64,000 nucleotides of DNA from positions 14,976 to 78,975 of the forward strand of contig JBBIPP010000005.1 in NCBI GenBank assembly GCA_037442745.1, written 5' to 3'. The notes beneath the pieces are model-generated. The model searched no databases. It saw only the letters and a list, made by a program, of their open reading frames with translations, and was not told the origin of the DNA. The stretch's first letter is position 1, and every line of letters starts with the position of its first letter. Made by a program: the position numbers and the translations under genes. Of the stretch, positions 22,665 through 60,812 are shown piece after piece. The DNA is from an archaeon. Its GTDB lineage: Archaea; SpSt-1190; DYHY01.

Positions 22665-23852
22665 CTAAGGAGGGCATCCCAATGCTATCAACGCCGAGTC
22701 CAATTTTGTGTTCTGGTCTGAGAGAAGAGGAATTACATTCTTCCCAGAATATGCGTTGAAAGCCGAGACCTGTGCTTGCCCAACACGCTCGTTCCCTTCG
22801 GCAAGAGGAGTCATACCGAGGAAAATATTCTCCGCAAGCCCGGTTGCCATGAGGCCAGCCCGCATATAGTCAACTACCTGCATGTCATAAGTATATTTGG
22901 CTGAATTGAGTTTAGCTTGGGCTTTGGCAACATCCCTTGCTTCCGCAGGAATTGTGAAATTGTCCATCCAGACCTTTTGGAAAAAGGCTGGAATTTTCTC
23001 GAAAAAGGTGCCGTTGAGATATTGACGCTCAAGCTGCGCCCGCTCGGAAACCGTTGAATTGTATTCTGATTTCTGGAGGTCCAGCTCAGCCGTGAGAGTG
23101 GCTAGCTCCTCTCTCTTGGCTCCAAATCCAGCAAGTATTTCGGACTGGGCAACCTCATACTTCTGCAGTTCCGGAGATTTTCCTAGAGCGGAATCTGTCT
23201 CGGAAACTAGGAATCTCGATGCATCAATCAAATCCTGCATTTCCGGTCCAGAGTCAGGGAGGGCGGAGAAATTAACTGCCTGCCTGATGTCCTGAAGGCA
23301 TTTTTGAGTTGCTTGTCCGATGTCCCCTGCATTGAAAAATGCCAAAGTCTCCAGAGAAACTGTCTTGTTGAACGTTGTCGGATCTGTCTGCCCTGCAAGT
23401 ATTTTCCCGTATTTGTCAGCCTCCTGTAAATATGCATTTAGCCGGGTACAGCTATCTGACGGAAGAGCAGTCGTTCCGTCGAAAGGATATGCGAAAAGGA
23501 GACTCTCTCCTGCATTTGAGCGTTCAGTAAGTAGGTTTATTACCGCCTGCCGGTCGTCCTTATAACCTTCTAGACGAACGCATGAATCCGCGAAATCCCC
23601 GGAGAGGTCACTCACTGGAAAATTCCTGTATTGGATTCCCGGGTCAAGATATTCCCCTCCATTCGAGGAATTCTGGTAAACAGAATATCCTCCGGCGGCA
23701 GTTCCGGCAAGTGCAAGGGCAAGCCCGGAATAAACAATTGCTTTGGAATATTTACTTTGAACGCCATTCATCTCAAGAGAGTTCGCCAAAGAGTCAATAA
23801 CTCTTTTAGCTTGCCTCGGGAGCGCCCTCAGACTCTGGACAAATCCGTTCAT
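22665..23852 (-). CDS. Membrane-anchored helical/coiled-coil hypothetical protein
   Basis: 395-aa ORF; one hydrophobic segment (IVYSGLALALAGTAAGGYSVY) then soluble helical region with several Cys. Confidence 0.8.
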   Translation of the reverse strand: MNGFVQSLRALPRQAKRVIDSLANSLEMNGVQSKYSKAIVYSGLALALAGTAAGGYSVYQNSSNGGEYLDPGIQYRNFPVSDLSGDFADSCVRLEGYKDDRQAVINLLTERSNAGESLLFAYPFDGTTALPSDSCTRLNAYLQEADKYGKILAGQTDPTTFNKTVSLETLAFFNAGDIGQATQKCLQDIRQAVNFSALPDSGPEMQDLIDASRFLVSETDSALGKSPELQKYEVAQSEILAGFGAKREELATLTAELDLQKSEYNSTVSERAQLERQYLNGTFFEKIPAFFQKVWMDNFTIPAEARDVAKAQAKLNSAKYTYDMQVVDYMRAGLMATGLAENIFLGMTPLAEGNERVGQAQVSAFNAYSGKNVIPLLSDQNTKLDSALIALGCPP

Positions 23853-25564: not shown

Positions 25565-27448
25565 CTAGTAAAGCATCCGGATTATCCGAAATAGGCCGGT
25601 TGACCCCCCAATTGCTTTTGTTTTGCTATGCAAGTATTTTCCTGGAAAGAGATCTCCTGAAAGTATTGAGCGGGCAAGACAGTCAGAAGCCCCCTGTATC
25701 CTTCTTGTATCATATTGCTCTACTCCGACGGAATAGAGGAGCTTTGATTCTTTCATCAGCTTCGCGCCTAGGAGCTCAGTGTCAATGTCCGTTTCGACGC
25801 CAGCTTTTTTTACTGACTTGGCAAACTCATTGGAAATTCTCAAGAAACCTTCCCTGATCTCGGCTTTCCTTTGTTCGCTAATGTCTGTTAGGGGATTGTG
25901 TTCAAATTCACTTTTGTTACCTACAACATTTACTATTTTCTCAAGGCCGGCGGAATATGCCTTGTATGTCAGGTCTCGGACAATTTCCGCTTTCCTGACT
26001 TCTTGCGAATACTCAGTTATCCTGTTCCGCCCCATCAGTTTCGAGTAGTTCGCCGCATCGTCCGCCCACGAAATTAGCTCTTGGGAATTTTCCTTTCCCC
26101 CGGAAATTCCGATTGATGCAGTTATCGGGGAATCGTCAGAAGGAGATGCAACTATTCTTTCTCTTGAAATCCTCTCCTGCACTTTTTCTGCCAGTTCGCG
26201 GGCGCTCTCAACCCCTCCACCGACCGAAATTATGAACTCCTCGCCCCCATACCTTATTGCGGAAGCTCTTTTGGCTCCGAGAATTATCTTTCTGGCTTTT
26301 GCAAAAATTCCCGCTCCCTCGTTAGCCCTGTTGTATTCGGAAACAGTTTCCTCAATTGCCTTTGCAACCCTTCCAAGGACAACGTCTCCTCCGGTGTGGC
26401 CGTAGCGCTGGTTCTTGACGCTGAAATTGTCCAAGTCAATCATTACAATGGAGTTCTCCTCTCTTCCCGAGGCCTGTGTTTTCCCAATCTCGCGTTTTGC
26501 CCCGTCCCTTGAAGGGAGAGAGACTGGTTCAGGGTTTCCGGAAGGAGTCAGAACTTGTGTGTATTCATTAGGAATGTCTTTGATGTTGAAATTCTCCCTG
26601 AGAAGCGCCCTTGATACTGCGTCTGAAAAGCCAAGGACCTCCCGATAGGAGTTCGGGTCAACGCCCGAGGATTTCATCAGAGTTATGTTGTCTCTGAAAA
26701 GAGCGCTTGCGGGTTCTGGGAGAAGGCTGGCTATCTCGTTTATTTTGTCTTCGTTCTTCATTGCGGAATAGTGCATGTTCCAGACTGCGCTCCTGAGGAT
26801 TTCGGCTATCGCAGAGTTCCTCGTATTGCCGGAACTCAGGTTCCTCCCCAAAAGCTTTGAATATTCGACTGCGAAATCAGCCCCTTCCCTTGCCGAAGCG
26901 GCCGCATTCTGAAAACCGTTGCCCCCGACAATGGAAGAATTATATCCGACTGAAATTGTGAGCTTTCTCGCTTCAGGATGTTCTTCGGGGACTATTTGTG
27001 CGCCTTCAACCGCTTTCCGAAGTCCCTCCGCAATTTCCCTAACCCTCTCTCGGTCAACAGTTGAAATGAGAAAAGTCTCCTCCCCGCCATATCGGAACAG
27101 TTTGACTGTGTCGACCTGGCCGGAAAATGCTTCCGCAAGAAAATCAAAATTAATTGCCCGCCCGGCCCTCCGAATATTTTTCTTCAGTAATCCGGAGATT
27201 CCTTTCAGGGATTCGTCCTCAATTGACCTGTTGACCTTTTCGACATATTCCCGAGCAACTTCTCCGTATTTCCGGAGAACCTCGTCCCCAACATTGTGGG
27301 AATATGTGTTATAACCTGAGAAATAGTCCAGATCCCCGAAAACTGCGGAGAAATTTCCTGTCTTTTCAGCGCGGGCAGCTAGTTTTCCGACTTGCAGTTT
27401 AACTTCGGATTTCGAGAGGAAACCTGTCAGCAAGTCTTTCTTTGCCAT
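25565..27448 (-). CDS. Protein with two tandem GGDEF (diguanylate cyclase-like) domains
   Basis: Domain 1: DLLTG, DLDYF..YN.YSH..GD.VL, RYGGEET, TISVG, AD....SK..GRN; domain 2: IDLDNF...N..YGH..GD.VL, RYGGEEF, TASIG, AD.A...SK..GRNR. Confidence 0.88.
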   Translation of the reverse strand: MAKKDLLTGFLSKSEVKLQVGKLAARAEKTGNFSAVFGDLDYFSGYNTYSHNVGDEVLRKYGEVAREYVEKVNRSIEDESLKGISGLLKKNIRRAGRAINFDFLAEAFSGQVDTVKLFRYGGEETFLISTVDRERVREIAEGLRKAVEGAQIVPEEHPEARKLTISVGYNSSIVGGNGFQNAAASAREGADFAVEYSKLLGRNLSSGNTRNSAIAEILRSAVWNMHYSAMKNEDKINEIASLLPEPASALFRDNITLMKSSGVDPNSYREVLGFSDAVSRALLRENFNIKDIPNEYTQVLTPSGNPEPVSLPSRDGAKREIGKTQASGREENSIVMIDLDNFSVKNQRYGHTGGDVVLGRVAKAIEETVSEYNRANEGAGIFAKARKIILGAKRASAIRYGGEEFIISVGGGVESARELAEKVQERISRERIVASPSDDSPITASIGISGGKENSQELISWADDAANYSKLMGRNRITEYSQEVRKAEIVRDLTYKAYSAGLEKIVNVVGNKSEFEHNPLTDISEQRKAEIREGFLRISNEFAKSVKKAGVETDIDTELLGAKLMKESKLLYSVGVEQYDTRRIQGASDCLARSILSGDLFPGKYLHSKTKAIGGSTGLFRIIRMLY

Positions 27449-27602
27449 GTCAATATTAATTACTATTAAGTGATTAAAAACACTTTCTATAAATAGCCTC
27501 TAAAAAGACCTAAAACGATATTAAAAAATAAAAGTCCAAAAAAAAGGCTTTATTTCAGGTCAAGATTTTTTTAAATAAACAAAGGTGCGTCCTTTTTGGA
27601 AA

Positions 27603-28048
27603 ATGAAGAAGATTTCCGATTTCCCTCCAGCGGAAGAAATGCCTTGGGCAACGGCAGTGAAGGCATTCATTGTGAATGAAAAAGAAGTCTAGTCCTCAAG
27701 AGGAATTCCAACCTCCCGCACTCTCCCGGAGAATATTATATTCCGGGCGGAAGACTTGAGAACGGGGAAGACCCGGTAGCGTGGGTGAAACTGGAGACTA
27801 TCGAGGAAACTGGCCTAGAAATCTGGGTCGGGCAAGTTATTGCAGTAAATAGCTTTGACAGAGACGACCTCCAGAGAATAACAATGCTAATTTTCCTCTG
27901 CTCAATTGAGGGGCGAGGTAAAGTTTCTCTCAAGGAAAAGGAAGCAGTCTCTTTCGAATGGCTGTCTGTGAAGGATGTCGAAAACATCTCTCGAAGTTCA
28001 AAGTAGTTGTCGAGAACTATCTGAAGTTCTTCAAGGGAAGATTGCCTA
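27603..28048 (+). pseudogene. NUDIX hydrolase pseudogene
   Basis: AVKAFIVNE then frameshift/stop, IPGGRLENGED......ETIEETGL Nudix box. Confidence 0.75.
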
Positions 28049-28684
28049 GTAGCTTATGAAAATGAACTCCGCTCCAGTCATTTTCCTGTAAAAATCGAGG
28101 TCTGGCACTTTCTGGCCGGCCGATCGCAGGGTTTCAAGACCAGTCCATGACAGGAACCATCCGCCGGGTTCGAGGATTACGAGAATCATGTTCGTGAGAA
28201 GGCTTCCCTCCCAAGTATATACAATCCCTCCGAGGAAAAGGAAAAGAAGGCCTATTCCGGTGAATATTTTCCCCTCATTTTTCACCTTGTTTAGGGCATC
28301 TTGTTTCTCCTTATTTGCCTTTGAAAAATGCCTCTTCAACCTCTGCTTTATGAGCCCCTCAGATATTGCGTCCCGCTTTCCGGATGGAATCATTATCCGT
28401 ATTTCAAGGCCCCGCTCAACTTTCCCTATTGACGCCCTCTTGCATTCCTCCAAAAAGTCCTGGGAGAGCGTCCTCTGGGAGATGTGCCGGGCGTCAAAGT
28501 CTGAGAATATGTCGTCATAAGTGTCAATCATTAGGGAAATGTTCCAGTTGTCGAGGGCTTCCGGAGAAATTTCAGAATCCTTTTTCGTTTGGATCTTTTT
28601 CCTTATAGGAAAAAGCGATGAGGCTGCAAGAGTCTTTTGCAAATCTTCCTTCTTTTCAGGCGCTGTCCGGGAATCTTCTGACAT
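28046..28684 (-). CDS. Conserved hypothetical membrane protein
   Basis: ISL.IDTYDDIFSDFD.R....R.LS.DFL, two C-terminal TM segments with EP.GWF..WTG; start taken at ATG 28684. Confidence 0.8.
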   Translation of the reverse strand: MSEDSRTAPEKKEDLQKTLAASSLFPIRKKIQTKKDSEISPEALDNWNISLMIDTYDDIFSDFDARHISQRTLSQDFLEECKRASIGKVERGLEIRIMIPSGKRDAISEGLIKQRLKRHFSKANKEKQDALNKVKNEGKIFTGIGLLFLFLGGIVYTWEGSLLTNMILVILEPGGWFLSWTGLETLRSAGQKVPDLDFYRKMTGAEFIFISY

Positions 28685-29285
28685 GAAAGGAGGGAAAATG
28701 AAAGTAGGATAAATGCCTATCGGGAACAATATCTTGGTTAACTGATGTCAGGGACGGGTCAAGGAATACGCAATTTCTTGCGTCAATTTTCCGTATTCTG
28801 GGCGAGGAAAGCGAAAGTGTTTGCATTCTGTTGCCGGGGGGCGTTACTTTGAAAATTGAGCGGATTTTTGCGCTCTTACATTAATAGTAATTTAAGGTTA
28901 GTAGTTTCGCTTATTAAAGGGCGGAAAACCGTAAGCAGTAGAGGGGCTCGGGAAAAACTCCGGCGGAGCATTATGCAGAAAGCTTTCTTTCAAAAGGTTG
29001 TTAGGGAAGGGAAAGAGCTTGTAAATTACGCTCTCGGCGTTGGCTATGTCGCGGATTTGCAAAAATACAACGGGACAAGAAAAAAGGTTGCTTACTAGTC
29101 CGTTGCCTGGCAAAGTAAGGTTCTCTTTTTGACATTGAAAGGATTTTTGTTTTCAAGAAAAGAGGGTTTCTGGCACCAGTGCAGTGGCACGGATCTAGCC
29201 TATATTTTCGACAGAGGGAAGTCGGAGCGTTGGCGGAAATCTCAGACTGTGCCTGTCTAGAATTACGCCCAATAAAAAGAACAGG

Positions 29286-57027: not shown

Positions 57028-57695
57028 GTGAAAAAGGCGGGTGGCTGCGCTCATGATTGGCGCTGACGGGGTTCTCCTGAAAAAGGGCGCCCTCTTCAGC
57101 GAAGGGCTTTCTGTCCGCCAAAAAATCCCGAAAACGAAAATAAACGCATTCTTCAATGAGTTCAGGGACTTCCTCGTTGGGCGGGCGGATGTTTCGGAAA
57201 AAATCAAGAAATGTCTCAATTACTTGGACTGGAATGGTTCAGTTGAGTGGCTTCTTTCGTTCTGGCACGGGGAAATTGAGCCGGGCGCATCCCTTTTCAA
57301 ATGGGCGCTCTCAGCCGGGAAAAGGAGTGTTTTGGTGTTTCTCGCAAAAAACAACGACAAAAGAAGGGCGGAATCTTTATCGAAAAGTCTGGGGCTTAAA
57401 GAAGTTCGATGGAGTCCTCTCGTCTGCATCTCTTTGGGCAATGAAGCCGGAAAGGGATTTTTGCAGGAAAGCCCTCGGCGTTCTCGGGGAGATTCGCCGG
57501 GGTATTTTGAAGAGCCAAATACTCCTTGTTGACGACGACCTGAAGAATGTCCTTGGCGCAATGGAGGTCGGGTTCTGGGAAATCCGCTACTCGAGCTTTT
57601 CAGACTTCTCAAAAACTCTCAAGAAAAAATCCCGGAACTCGTTACTTGATTTCAATCCCGAGGGGCGTTGCCTCGAACTCTATCCAGTCTGTTAG
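57028..57695 (+). pseudogene. HAD-family phosphatase pseudogene
   Basis: MIGADGVL (first catalytic Asp lost), LAKNN, frameshift ~57400 to SASL..MKP...ILLVDDDLKNV.GA..VG. Confidence 0.7.
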
Positions 57696-58334
57696 GACTT
57701 TTCCCGTTGGTCTCCTCGGCACCCTGAAATAGTCCCGCCCCCCTTCGCTCTTGAACTCAATTGTGGCGTCAGTCAGATGCTCGAGAGTGGTTATTACCCG
57801 CTCGTCATGCATCCCCGCCTCTATTGAGAACAGCGTTGTTGCTCCCAATCCCTTCAGGCGGGCGCCCATTACCTGTATGAACCTGAACACAATGTCTGCG
57901 TTGTTGTAGAGGACAAGGGTTGAGAGGGAATGGAAAGACATTCGGGAGTTCGCCCCCGGTTTTGAAATCTCAGAGAGCGCTCTTGACACTGCAATTGATA
58001 GCTCGTTTAATGAAGAAGGTCCGGGAACTATGATATCTGAATTCCTTCCTTCTGGCATCTTCTGCTGGAGCGCCCAGGAATAGCAGTCAACGAATTTTGC
58101 CCTTGAGAGATCCATTCCGAAGGATAAAGCCCGCTTCTCAAGATCGGCAGGCGAATTGTCAGTCGTAACATATGCGCAAGGTTCGCCAATCTTTGTTCCA
58201 TATGCCAGGAATTGGGAGAGGAACAGGTCTTTTTTCGAGGAAGGGGAGCCTATAACTAGGAAATTGGTTTTCTCGGAAAAGCCCCCATCAAGGAGCTCGT
58301 CAAATTTCCCTATCCCTATTTTCAAAAAGAGCAT
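57642..58334 (-). CDS. KaiC/RAD55-family ATPase-like protein, degenerate Walker A
   Basis: GI..FDELLDGG, GSPSSKKDLF, GEPCAYVT, FVDCYS, HSLSTL, LEHLTD..IEF. Confidence 0.88.
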   Translation of the reverse strand: MLFLKIGIGKFDELLDGGFSEKTNFLVIGSPSSKKDLFLSQFLAYGTKIGEPCAYVTTDNSPADLEKRALSFGMDLSRAKFVDCYSWALQQKMPEGRNSDIIVPGPSSLNELSIAVSRALSEISKPGANSRMSFHSLSTLVLYNNADIVFRFIQVMGARLKGLGATTLFSIEAGMHDERVITTLEHLTDATIEFKSEGGRDYFRVPRRPTGKVLTDWIEFEATPLGIEIK

Positions 58335-58346
58335 TTCTCTGTTAAT

Positions 58347-58721
58347 TCACCCCAATTTCAATGATATTTTCTCGCTCGCCCTGCCCATTTCGAGGAGCAC
58401 TAGGCCAAGATTCCCTGTTGGTCTCACAAGGCAGACTAACAGAGCCTGGTTTCCGGCAGGAATTGCGATTAGTTTCCCCTTTTCTGATTCGACTATTATC
58501 TGCGGGAATTTCCCGAGATTAAGCTCTCCTGCGGAAGTCTCGGCAGTTCCGACAATTGCGGCTGACATTGCTGCAATTGTCCGGGAGTCTATTTTCGTGG
58601 AAAGGGAGGAGGAAATCATTAGCCCGTCCTTTCGGGCAATTGCAGCCCCTTGGATGTCTCCGAATTCCTGGAGGTGCGCAAGTACAGTTTCAAGCTCTTT
58701 CTGTTTCTCTTCCAGTCCCAT
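58347..58721 (-). CDS. Roadblock/LC7 (MglB-like) protein
   Basis: AIARKDGLMISS, IAAMSAAI.G.AE....EL..G, NLGLVLLEM. Confidence 0.93.
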   Translation of the reverse strand: MGLEEKQKELETVLAHLQEFGDIQGAAIARKDGLMISSSLSTKIDSRTIAAMSAAIVGTAETSAGELNLGKFPQIIVESEKGKLIAIPAGNQALLVCLVRPTGNLGLVLLEMGRASEKISLKLG

Positions 58722-58723
58722 TT

Positions 58724-59923
58724 TCAGGCAGTCCCTCCGGGAGCCTTTCCTTCATTCTTAAATCCTATTATCAGGTCAAAAAGGGCGACAAGAGTGTCGA
58801 AAATCCCAGTTCCGTCAAGGGCAATTGTCCGTATTAAGGGAACTCTTGGGGAAATTGAGAGGGCTTTTCTGATTTCTTCCGATTCGATTGCGCCTTCAAG
58901 GTCGCTTTTGTTCGCTGCAACAACGAAAGGAAGCCGCCCTCCGGAAACAAGGTAAATCATTTCCCGCGCCCTTTGGAAAGATTCCCGGTCAGTCGAATCG
59001 ACAACGAGAATTACCCCGAAAGTGTCCCTCGCAAGTATTGGGAGAATGAAGTTGAACGCCTCCTGGCCGGGAGTCCCGAACAAGTCTATTGAAAATCCCT
59101 TGTATTCAACATATCCGTGGTCAAGGGCAACTGTTGTTCCTAGCCTGTCGACTGAGACTGCCTTTGTCGAGATTTTGTGTATGAATGTTGACTTTCCCGA
59201 GTGGTAGGGGCCTGTGACAATCACTTTCGGGACATATAGGGAAATCCCTCCGCCTGTTGACGAAACCTTGAACGGTATGTGGAGGTCCTTTCTTGATGAA
59301 ACAGTATAGAAGCTCCTCTCAATGAAATTCTCCTCAACTGAATCTATTGTTATTGTGCAAGGGAAAAGATTGCATAGGCTTTTTGCGAGCAAATCGTCCT
59401 CTTCGGTAATTCTTGGAAAGAGAAAAATCGGGCACATTCCGCCCTGTGCGGATTTTTCCATTAGCGCAAGTATTTGCTCGGTCAGTTTTTTGTCGCCTTC
59501 GTTGAAGAAGCCGGACGCAAGGGAATCGAAAACAATCAGCTTCGAGCCTGTCTTTTCCGAATATTCTGGGATAATTCCGCTCATTTCCGAGAGGGATTTC
59601 ACTGAAGTGATTCCCTCCTCAGCCCCGCCTGACGGGAAAATCCCCAGGTTCGCGGAATATGCGTCAATGAACTTGAGGTTTGCCGGATTGAATGCAAGCC
59701 TCATTGACAAGAGTCTCTCTCGGACGAATGACGGCATTTTGTCGGAAACGAAATATGTGCAAGGGACGCTCTTCGACGCTTCCGCAACAATCTGCTGGCC
59801 GAATACCTCAACATCCGAGCCCAAGGATCCAGTTATTAGGACTGGGCTTTTCAGGGAGAGCCCTCCGCCCAAAAGCTCGTCCATTTTCGGTATTCCTGTT
59901 CTGATAATTGAGTCAGCCGTCAT
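58724..59923 (-). CDS. Fusion of inactive KaiC/RAD55-like domain and small GTPase (MglA/conservon type)
   Basis: N: TGIPKMDELLGGG, GSLGSDVE, FIDAYS, VFDSL; C: GPYHSGKST, TTVALDHG, FGTPGQ, NKSD; start ATG 59923. Confidence 0.9.
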   Translation of the reverse strand: MTADSIIRTGIPKMDELLGGGLSLKSPVLITGSLGSDVEVFGQQIVAEASKSVPCTYFVSDKMPSFVRERLLSMRLAFNPANLKFIDAYSANLGIFPSGGAEEGITSVKSLSEMSGIIPEYSEKTGSKLIVFDSLASGFFNEGDKKLTEQILALMEKSAQGGMCPIFLFPRITEEDDLLAKSLCNLFPCTITIDSVEENFIERSFYTVSSRKDLHIPFKVSSTGGGISLYVPKVIVTGPYHSGKSTFIHKISTKAVSVDRLGTTVALDHGYVEYKGFSIDLFGTPGQEAFNFILPILARDTFGVILVVDSTDRESFQRAREMIYLVSGGRLPFVVAANKSDLEGAIESEEIRKALSISPRVPLIRTIALDGTGIFDTLVALFDLIIGFKNEGKAPGGTA

Positions 59924-59924
59924 C

Positions 59925-60323
59925 TCAGAGAGTTCCCTCCGCGAGAATCTGGGAAACCTTGTTTGCAACCCGCCCCATTTCAAGAAGGACGAGCCCGAGG
60001 TTCGCCCTGTCGCTCACAAGGCATATCAAAAGGGCGAAACTGCCCGCCCCAGTTGCAATTAATTTTCCCTTTTCAGCCTCGACAACAATCTGGAGGAACC
60101 TTCCAAGCTGGAGTTCGGCAGAGCAGGTTTCCGCCGTTCCGACAAGGGCAGCCGACATTGCGGCAACCATTTTTCCGTCCGTTTCCTTTGGAAGGAGGGA
60201 TGCTACCATTAGTCCGTCCCGCCGGACAACTGCGACACCTTGAATTTCTGGAAGAGTCTCTAGGAAAGCGAGGACATCCTCCAATTGCTTTTCAATTCCG
60301 GGTTTCTCTGAAACAGCTTCCAT
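59925..60323 (-). CDS. Roadblock/LC7 (MglB-like) protein, paralog of 58347..58721
   Basis: VVRRDGLMVAS, VAAMSAALVGTAET, NLGLVLLEMGR. Confidence 0.93.
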   Translation of the reverse strand: MEAVSEKPGIEKQLEDVLAFLETLPEIQGVAVVRRDGLMVASLLPKETDGKMVAAMSAALVGTAETCSAELQLGRFLQIVVEAEKGKLIATGAGSFALLICLVSDRANLGLVLLEMGRVANKVSQILAEGTL

Positions 60324-60698
60324 CTAACCAGCCCCCTTGCCTGGCTCCTTGACGAAACTGTTGTTTAACTCTAAAAGCCAGTTGGGAAGAAGATCTTGAC
60401 AGCTACTCGGCTCGACAATTTTGGATTTGCAGGGCTTGTCCAATCCTGAACAGGCACGTCCGGCGAGTGTTTTTGCAACAGGCCCGATTATTTTCACATA
60501 AAGGTTGACGAATGCGTCAACGCCTTCTTTTGAAAAATCCTCCGGAACTGTTATTTTTCCGTCTTTTGAGGCTGATACTCCCTTGAGAGACCCGGCAAGA
60601 GTATATGCAGTTCTCCCTATTATTTTGGCAACATTTTCGGCAATTGCCGAGCAGAGGGAATTGTAAAAACGGGTTTTCTCTTCAGCGGAAAGTTCCAT
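60324..60698 (-). CDS. Small helical protein with internal KIIG repeat, first gene of Roadblock/GTPase operon
   Basis: KIIGRTA...A and KIIGPVA...A; abuts the Roadblock start. Confidence 0.7.
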   Translation of the reverse strand: MELSAEEKTRFYNSLCSAIAENVAKIIGRTAYTLAGSLKGVSASKDGKITVPEDFSKEGVDAFVNLYVKIIGPVAKTLAGRACSGLDKPCKSKIVEPSSCQDLLPNWLLELNNSFVKEPGKGAG

Positions 60699-60812
60699 TG
60701 GCAATTTGGAACAGATATTAACAAAATCTTTATTTATATTTTGTTAATTGGCTCTTTTTAACAAGAATTCGTGAAATAAGCATTTCCTAGTGGTTTGATT
60801 CCTTTTTGAATG

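Follow-up and report, generated by a model that had tools for sequence, protein, structure and literature searches.

We analysed a window of 64,000 nucleotides from the genome of an archaeon (contig JBBIPP010000005.1 of assembly GCA_037442745.1, positions 14,976 to 78,975) and characterized a gene on its reverse strand that encodes a protein with two GGDEF domains. The gene is an uninterrupted open reading frame (ORF) at 25565..27448 (-), stop codon included, which begins with ATG and, according to the ORF list and its translation, specifies 627 amino acids. Profile searches assigned the protein to the GGDEF family: PF00990 matched with an E value of 5.2e-33 and 114.5 bits (cut-off 23.8), its four matching stretches falling into two domains, and NCBIfam TIGR00254 scored 130.1 bits against a cut-off of 37.4. 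A sequence search of the PDB returned 47 distinct chains at E<=1, every one a GGDEF protein or fusion, with DosC (3.9e-12), WspR (2e-11) and PleD (4.3e-8) as the top relatives. Pfam gave no further family for the whole protein, nor for its two tail regions scanned alone at E<=10. As the highest Kyte-Doolittle mean over 19 residues was only 0.63, the protein has no membrane segment. A first-pass annotation of the window had described a soluble tandem double-GGDEF protein without sensor, transmembrane or EAL/HD-GYP domain, and had proposed a PF00990 search as a check; this search, which matched both domains, and the hydropathy profile bear out the description.

The protein consists of a GGDEF domain followed by a tail, an arrangement that occurs twice, and all of its parts are read from the reverse strand. 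GGDEF domain 1 (residues 1-205; 26834..27448, -) was delimited by the PF00990 and TIGR00254 stretches, and jackhmmer placed it at residues 15-204. It contains a wide turn with DLLTG, the motif DLDYFS, N47, D55, the signature RYGGEE-T-F, K198 and R202. Before RYGGEE, at the RxxD I-site loop, an insertion of about residues 70-116 (27101..27241, -) was evident because 47 other tandem GGDEF proteins have gaps there in the alignment. Tail 1 (residues 206-311; 26516..26833, -) ends in the Pro-rich linker TPSGNPEPVSLPS and includes the conserved motif LMKSSGVDPNSYREVLGFSDAVSRALL at residues 257-283 (26600..26680, -). GGDEF domain 2 (residues 312-480; 26009..26515, -), defined by the profiles and by alignments, carries DLDNFS, N346, D355, an insertion of 22 residues, RYGGEEF, K470 and R474. 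It is followed by tail 2 (residues 481-627; 25568..26008, -) with the conserved motif LLYSVGVEQYDTRRIQGASDCLARSIL at residues 570-596 (25661..25741, -).

The two halves of the protein are 31% identical over 222 residues (E 8e-12), in an alignment that spans the insertion and the first helix past the domain. In a FastTree phylogeny of 245 GGDEF domains, comprising seven domain copies of this protein family and 238 other domains, the domain-1 and domain-2 clades were sisters with a local Shimodaira-Hasegawa-like support of 89; the deeper placement of these clades received support of 35-42 and involved long branches. The tails have the 27-residue motif in common (LMKSSGVDPNSYREVLGFSDAVSRALL and LLYSVGVEQYDTRRIQGASDCLARSIL), with a Smith-Waterman score of 47 compared with 24.4 +/- 4.3 for shuffled sequences, none of which (0 of 2000) reached 47. 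Few stretches of the protein are as well conserved among the orthologues as the two motifs: that of tail 1 is identical in all four orthologues, and that of tail 2 varies at one residue. Because each half has the other as its closest relative and their tails carry a common motif, a unit of GGDEF domain and tail was duplicated in tandem inside this lineage, at a time when the serine and the insertion described below were already present. The putatively helical segments that the first-pass annotation had placed after each GGDEF domain are not mere linkers; they form a duplicated and conserved module with a common 27-residue motif.

Residues of the active site are compared here with PleD in its customary numbering. 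Two alignments were used, one (A1) in which the 627-residue protein was set beside its three orthologues and a further 47 proteins with two GGDEF domains, and a second of the 245 single domains; the roles of the PleD residues in metal, guanine and phosphate binding were taken from the text of PMC7288161 and PMC12943098. The metal-binding aspartate (PleD D327) is kept in both domains as D39 and D338. So are the guanine-reading asparagine and aspartate (PleD N335 and D344), as N47/N346 and D55/D355, the latter within an xxGD motif (G54-D55 in domain 1 and G354-D355 in domain 2), and the phosphate-binding lysine and arginine (PleD K442 and R446), as K198/K470 and R202/R474. GGEE is present in both domains and in all orthologues, within RYGGEE-T-F in domain 1 and RYGGEEF in domain 2. 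The usual ND is changed to NT in domain 1 (N47, T48) and to NQ in domain 2 (N346, Q347). Neither domain has an RxxD I-site five residues upstream of GG(D/E)EF; SEYN stands at the aligned position in domain 2, and the insertion fills the loop. The spacer between the guanine-reading aspartate and the arginine before GG comprises 63 residues in the first domain and 43 in the second, compared with 21 in 194 of the 238 other domains, and the excess corresponds to insertions of 42 and 22 residues exactly at the I-site loop. The alignments reproduced what had been read from the sequence at first pass, namely the DxD, Asn and guanine-contacting GD kept in both domains, the serine in place of the FK lysine (DYFS and DNFS), NT/NQ for ND, the missing RxxD and the insertion before the signature.

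The gene lies directly upstream of those for L18e, L13, S9 and RpoN, as determined by Pfam searches on the neighbours, on a contig of 91.6 kb with archaeal genes on both sides. The genome measures 1.136 Mb in 20 contigs and is 94.5% complete with 0.62% contamination. An orthologue 84% identical over residues 2-626 was found on an independent 57-kb metagenome contig (L093), where the gene order is that of the window: a protein with a domain of unknown function (DUF), NUDIX, GGDEF, L18e, L13 and S9. Two further assemblies yielded proteins of 81-82% identity (P0002 and P0003), so that, with the L093 product (P0270), the gene has been recovered in four assemblies. These flanking genes and the relatives of the genome confirm that the DNA is archaeal, as the first-pass annotation had stated.

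Between the window and L093, the synonymous divergence (dS) of the GGDEF gene was 0.46, compared with 0.44-0.52 for the adjacent ribosomal genes. The ratio of non-synonymous to synonymous divergence (dN/dS) was 0.21 overall, and 0.19 for GGDEF domain 1, 0.13 for tail 1, 0.21 for GGDEF domain 2 and 0.22 for tail 2; values for L18e, L13 and S9 were 0.02-0.04. All four segments are thus under purifying selection. Both copies are intact frames of 624-627 amino acids; in the L093 orthologue ACG stands in place of the ATG, and a TTG five codons further downstream is the first start listed. The codon-usage likelihood of the gene falls at the 40th percentile, and its GC content at the 13th, of 506 long ORFs in the genome. 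A TATA-like box, CTATTTATAG on the reverse strand (27487..27496, -), was read from the sequence 39-48 nt upstream of the ATG, within an AT-rich spacer. The block is conserved upstream of the L093 orthologue and is a putative archaeal promoter.

A diguanylate cyclase requires two GTP-loaded GGDEF half-sites (GTP, guanosine triphosphate). Our favoured explanation, to which we assign a probability of roughly 0.42, is that the protein is a lineage-specific single-chain pseudo-dimer of divergent GGDEF domains that would bind GTP and act as a cyclase. The ancestral unit would already have had serine for the FK lysine, a helical insertion replacing the I-site loop, and a C-terminal tail with the motif S-x-G-V...R...G-x-S-D...R...L. 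Tandem duplication of this unit inside one gene would have converted an ancestral homodimer of GGDEF domain plus tail, in which the tails possibly supplied the pairing, into a fused pseudo-dimer. The two domains may then associate inside the same chain, with the homologous tails perhaps holding them together, and join two GTP molecules into cyclic di-GMP (c-di-GMP) or the linear precursor pppGpG. Regulation would proceed without RxxD product feedback and without a fused sensor domain, and the signal may be read by the tails of the protein itself. What the analysis shows is the architecture, duplication, residue conservation, purifying selection, native archaeal context and lack of known partners; that GTP is bound, that the domains pair within the chain, and that catalysis yields such a product is our inference. 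The strongest argument is evolutionary conservation: the halves are only 31% identical and each has kept a full set of guanine, phosphate and metal residues, which is expected if both must bind GTP-Mg, as in a cyclase with two half-sites. A duplication that places both half-sites in one chain would also fit halves that are sister duplicates and equally conserved. A fused pseudo-dimer seems the simplest mechanism, at the tentative level given above.

Several observations weigh against this explanation. The lysine of D-x-D-x-F-K (PleD K332) is serine in all seven domain copies of the family and is lysine in 198 of the 238 other domains. The text of PMC12943098 describes the equivalent lysine as a stabiliser of the transition state, and according to that of PMC7288161 its backbone touches the phosphates. 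Domain 1 carries an extra threonine inside its motif (GGEE-T-F), and domain 2 lacks the DxLTGxxNR start. The 627-residue ORF is the sole GGDEF protein of its genome, in which PilZ (PF07238), MshEN (PF05157), EAL (PF00563) and HD-GYP/HD_5 (PF13487) gave no match at E<=0.1 and no DAC domain scored over its cut-off. The c-di-GMP-I riboswitch RF01051 reached at best 16.7 bits, well short of its gathering score of 35, and the c-di-GMP-II riboswitch RF01786 had no match; as these partner searches cover a genome that is 94.5% complete, a partner gene could conceivably have been missed. The first-pass annotation had noted no receptor in the window and had suggested a genome search for PilZ, MshEN and HD-GYP, and its observation holds for the whole genome, riboswitches included. 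The distribution of the gene points in the same direction. At the syntenic site of a same-genus genome, L18e is followed by the NUDIX and DUF genes without a GGDEF gene between them, and queries with the protein found it in none of four genomes of the same order and in none of 16 other genomes of the phylum, for which GTDB lists 17 species. The gene is therefore dispensable.

This patchy occurrence (0 of 16 phylum genomes and an empty syntenic site), together with a frameshift in the adjoining NUDIX gene of this genome, would also be expected of an artefact or decaying passenger, that is, a chimeric bacterial fragment or a recent transfer on its way to loss. Such an origin is largely refuted by the archaeal genes on both sides of the gene on one 91.6-kb contig, the identical gene order on the independent 57-kb contig, two intact frames with a dN/dS of 0.21 and native codon usage. 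Furthermore, the closest bacterial protein among 1.84 billion representatives was no better than E 4e-17. The chimeric bacterial contig that the first-pass annotation had named as its refuting case is excluded by the flanking genes, the synteny with L093 and the codon usage, and we consider this whole class of explanations highly improbable.

The changes around the phosphate-binding loop bear on a second alternative, in which the protein is an active enzyme with another product, which could be a linear dinucleotide released at the end of the reaction, another cyclic di- or oligonucleotide, mixed ones included, or the result of nucleotidyl transfer. An altered product might be expected because the P-loop is altered (FS for FK, NT/NQ for ND) and the halves are asymmetric. 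The changes beside the loop are systematic and occur in both domains, GGEE-T-F and DxLT are found in one half and neither in the other, and the genome has no c-di-GMP-specific partner. GGDEF variants that make cyclic GMP-AMP (cGAMP) exist (Hallberg 2019, cited in PMC13725321, sections 2.4 and 2.12). The signature of these Hypr enzymes, defined in the same sections as serine replacing the xxGD aspartate, is nevertheless absent: D55 and D355 are kept, and with Asp and Asn present in both domains guanine is predicted at both sites. Nothing in the analysis points toward another product, and we regard this alternative as unlikely.

The tails were searched for a function of their own. Like Pfam, PHROG had no family for them, tail 1 as a single sequence matched no PDB family at E<=1, and PADLOC reported nothing for the whole protein. 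A profile of both motifs (A2) searched against the PDB matched only the helix-turn-helix (HTH) of Aca1, with E values of 0.013-0.015, where a single sequence had given 1.1-1.4; in this match, residues 24-64 were aligned with the tail motif. Using hhalign, we compared the motif with 28 archaeal HTH_3 domains and obtained the HTH register with a score of 16.2, which was equalled by 1 of 60 column shuffles. Genome scans with HTH_3 (PF01381) and YdaS_toxin (PF15943) did not match the ORF. The motif has an invariant arginine where small residues are the rule in HTHs, and the net charge is -3 for tail 1 and +4 for tail 2. The resemblance to Aca1 and Xre-type HTHs thus lies in the sole PDB match of the motif profile, whereas an E value of 0.013 and tails without a Pfam HTH match set them apart. 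We take an HTH in the tails as a lead and not as membership of the family, with the odds clearly on the other side.

Other origins of the tails were rejected. A degenerate remnant of HD-GYP (PF13487) was contradicted by hhalign scores of 10.8 and 10.5 against nine HD-GYP domains, which did not reach the averages of 11.6 and 12.9 obtained with shuffles, and a jackhmmer search with an HD-GYP profile did not report the 627-residue protein. A BLASTP match of tail 2 to a GGDEF-HD-GYP protein (E 3e-5) was discounted because the alignment rests on the C-terminus of the GGDEF domain. A defence-system or phage origin was likewise dismissed: PADLOC had no family for the protein or two of its neighbours, and the PHROG matches were to generic GGDEF proteins, none of them on the tails. 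In its own genome the A2 profile matched the 627-residue gene alone. Across 400 other archaeal genomes it gave one match at E<=0.01, which is chance level and fell in a frame with five stops. The ESM Atlas yielded no usable match for the tail of the homologue P0003.

These tails are central to a third alternative, namely that the protein is a non-catalytic or barely catalytic sensor or regulator, in which the GGDEF domains would bind GTP at their intact A-sites and the conserved tails would be the output, for example an HTH-like module binding DNA or protein. No second messenger would then have to be made, read or degraded, in agreement with the loss of the transition-state lysine from both domains and with a genome free of c-di-GMP partners. 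The odd GGEE-T-F and the lost DxLT in domain 2 agree with such a role, and the tails evolve most slowly in places (dN/dS of 0.13 for tail 1, motif identical in four orthologues). That the one kind of PDB match of the motif profile is the Aca1 HTH, at an E value improved from 1.1-1.4 to 0.013-0.015, and that the hhalign comparison gave the HTH register, would suit a DNA-binding output. GTP-sensing and scaffold GGDEF domains are known from bacteria according to section 2.4 of PMC13725321 and the text of PMC12943098. However, the HTH evidence is weak: one in 60 shuffles does as well, neither Pfam nor the two HTH profiles found the tails, the invariant arginine is out of place and the tails are not basic. 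Moreover, in GGDEF domains that serve purely as sensors, GGEE and the metal ligands have usually diverged, and here two copies with 31% identity retain all of them. We consider a sensor the likeliest of the alternatives, though less probable than the pseudo-dimer; the four readings leave a remainder of the probability unassigned. A combination of both functions would make the gene a complete one-gene signalling device in an organism without other c-di-GMP machinery: the GGDEF halves would form an intramolecular cyclase, and the duplicated tails, with their invariant S-G-V / R / G-x-S-D / R motif, would be a new class of receptor for nucleotides, or of output that binds DNA, and would read the product or GTP itself in cis. 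To this we give a small probability.

To place the protein among its relatives, we examined larger collections. A query over 60 relatives found one match, a weak one. Among 5.8 billion clustered proteins P0002 and P0003 alone were close, the next best having an E value of 3.8e-8, and among 1.84 billion representatives one protein (P0002) was found at E<=1e-30, followed by a match at 4.1e-17. The GGDEF family itself is sporadic in small archaeal genomes yet not rare, since 12 of a sample of 200 other archaeal genomes had a PF00990 score above the cut-off, which agrees with the text of PMC13725321 (Sidorov et al., Mol Microbiol, Sept 2026). The PF00990 matches in this sample yielded 16 archaeal GGDEF ORFs, none of which combines two domains in a single frame or carries a tail of this type.

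Sidorov and co-workers report that GGDEF proteins from archaea and from metagenome-assembled genomes (MAGs) of DPANN have cyclase activity in reporter hosts. In the main text of PMC13725321, three of seven archaeal MAG proteins gave a Vc2 riboswitch signal that depended on the catalytic residues, as judged by mutants, and one Vc2-positive protein has a 12-residue insertion upstream of GGDEF; these proteins are a precedent for the cyclase that we propose. The view that c-di-GMP signalling is essentially bacterial, adopted at first pass, is outdated by these data and by the 12 archaeal genomes with PF00990 in our sample. The proteins described there resemble ours in being encoded by sporadic, usually single-copy genes (section 3.2) with archaeal flanks in small-genome archaea, and in having non-canonical motifs and insertions near GGDEF. 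They differ in that they consist of GGDEF only or carry an N-terminal GAF, REC, PAS or seven-transmembrane (7TM) domain; the terms 'tandem' and 'GGDEF-GGDEF' have no occurrence each in that main text. Archaeal GGDEF cyclase activity, as documented in PMC13725321, and the tandem architecture, common among database hits as described below, lower the novelty of the gene. New here is a GGDEF protein that is divergent, restricted to one lineage and duplicated internally, whose tails are novel and whose archaeal host has no other component of c-di-GMP signalling.

Whether Archaea use c-di-GMP is a question that the work in PMC13725321 has only begun to answer, and the gene is a clean test case: a lone GGDEF gene in a 1.1-Mb archaeal genome without known receptor or phosphodiesterase, yet under purifying selection and with two complete nucleotide-binding sites. 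If the protein makes c-di-GMP, a cyclase would be workable as a fused pseudo-dimer without the 'essential' loop lysine, and archaeal effectors of a new kind would be implied. If GTP is only bound, a GGDEF domain would have been recruited as a sensor in Archaea.

Two other archaeal loci with GGDEF genes were noted. A 459-residue protein found on a Woesearchaeota MAG contig and a metagenome contig (L014 and L095) has a C-terminal GGDEF domain with MIDLDNFGRINK and RYGGEEF, behind a long Lys/Glu-rich N-terminus that is probably a coiled coil; at 35% identity it is among the closest single-domain matches to domain 2. In a complete 1.3-Mb archaeal genome, two GGDEF genes with frames of 358 and 493 amino acids adjoin each other (L209; G198:C1:876689-878760), and a third copy lies elsewhere.

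According to the jackhmmer domain count, two GGDEF domains are present in 85 of 149 representative hits (P0121-P0269), so that the tandem architecture noted at first pass is not unusual in the databases; this proportion shows that it is common and not how common, because domain scores add and the ranking favours two-domain proteins. A Pfam scan of 15 such hits found two GGDEF stretches in 14 and three in P0244. Within the tandem set the loop lysine is missing from 34 of 85 second domains compared with 2 of 84 first domains, usually replaced as F-G..N-[KR]. P0122, P0127, P0129, P0132, P0137, P0141 and others, of about 480-500 amino acids, carry D-x-D-x-F-G..N-[KR] instead of F-K..N-D in the second domain, and the Woesearchaeota GGDEF domain has the same variant. 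Loss of the loop lysine is therefore a variant that recurs and is conserved, and taken alone it does not indicate decay. The archaeal gene also draws notice to tandem GGDEF proteins as a class that is large and unstudied, and whose second domain often lacks this lysine. A literature search, with subscription journals outside its scope, found no paper on GGDEF-GGDEF proteins or on this second-domain variant; the instances of 'tandem GGDEF' that were read refer to GGDEF-EAL.

The tandem library proteins (P0122, P0127 and P0129 of about 490 amino acids; P0121 and P0125 of about 700-800) share with the archaeal protein two domains per chain and the retention of both catalytic sets. They differ in having canonical domains of about 120-140 bits each with the 21-residue spacer, an N-terminal region and no tails of the archaeal type. 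Usually only their second domain lacks the lysine, whereas both domains do so in the archaeal protein, and beyond the domain itself the two groups are unrelated (E >= 4e-17). PleD, WspR and DosC/DgcO (PF00990) belong to the same fold family by profile search and have in common with the archaeal protein GG(D/E)EF, the metal Asp, the guanine Asn/Asp, the phosphate Lys/Arg and the requirement for two half-sites. In contrast to them, the archaeal protein has no N-terminal sensor or dimerisation domain, no RxxD and serine for the FK lysine, and it contains insertions of 22/42 residues in the I-site loop and two domains per chain, each with its own tail. A match span of 2.4 kb in Novosphingobium (L023) was considered as a bacterial tandem example and rejected, as it comprises two separate genes. 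Another library protein, P0034 (722 amino acids), has precomputed Pfam assignments to sigma-70 regions 1.2, 2, 3 and 4 together with GGDEF and looks like a sigma factor fused with a GGDEF domain.

Finally, some features of the neighbourhood were recorded. The NUDIX hydrolase gene that adjoins the GGDEF gene (27604-28040, +) is broken: its frame stops after MKKISDFPPAEEMPWATAVKAFIVNEKEV, resumes in another frame at an A-run around 27680-27692, and undergoes a second shift near 27975-27985. The orthologues are unbroken, with a 149-aa ORF on L093 and a 153-aa ORF in the same-genus genome, and the broken copy is a pseudogene, or else the breaks come from an assembly error in a homopolymer. Two conserved proteins without Pfam or PADLOC family, one of 227 amino acids (28046-28729, -) and one of 395 (22665-23852, -), are both syntenic in L093; the former probably has C-terminal membrane helices and is syntenic in the same-genus genome as well. 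Further away, a cluster of five genes at 57642-60704 (-) encodes, in this order, a KaiC-like ATPase of 230 aa, a Roadblock/LC7 protein of 124 aa, a 419-aa protein in which a KaiC-like domain is fused to a small GTPase of the Ras/Arf type, another Roadblock/LC7 protein of 132 aa, and a 126-aa protein of no assigned kind. From its gene content this cluster looks like an MglA/MglB-like GTPase switch joined with KaiC modules.

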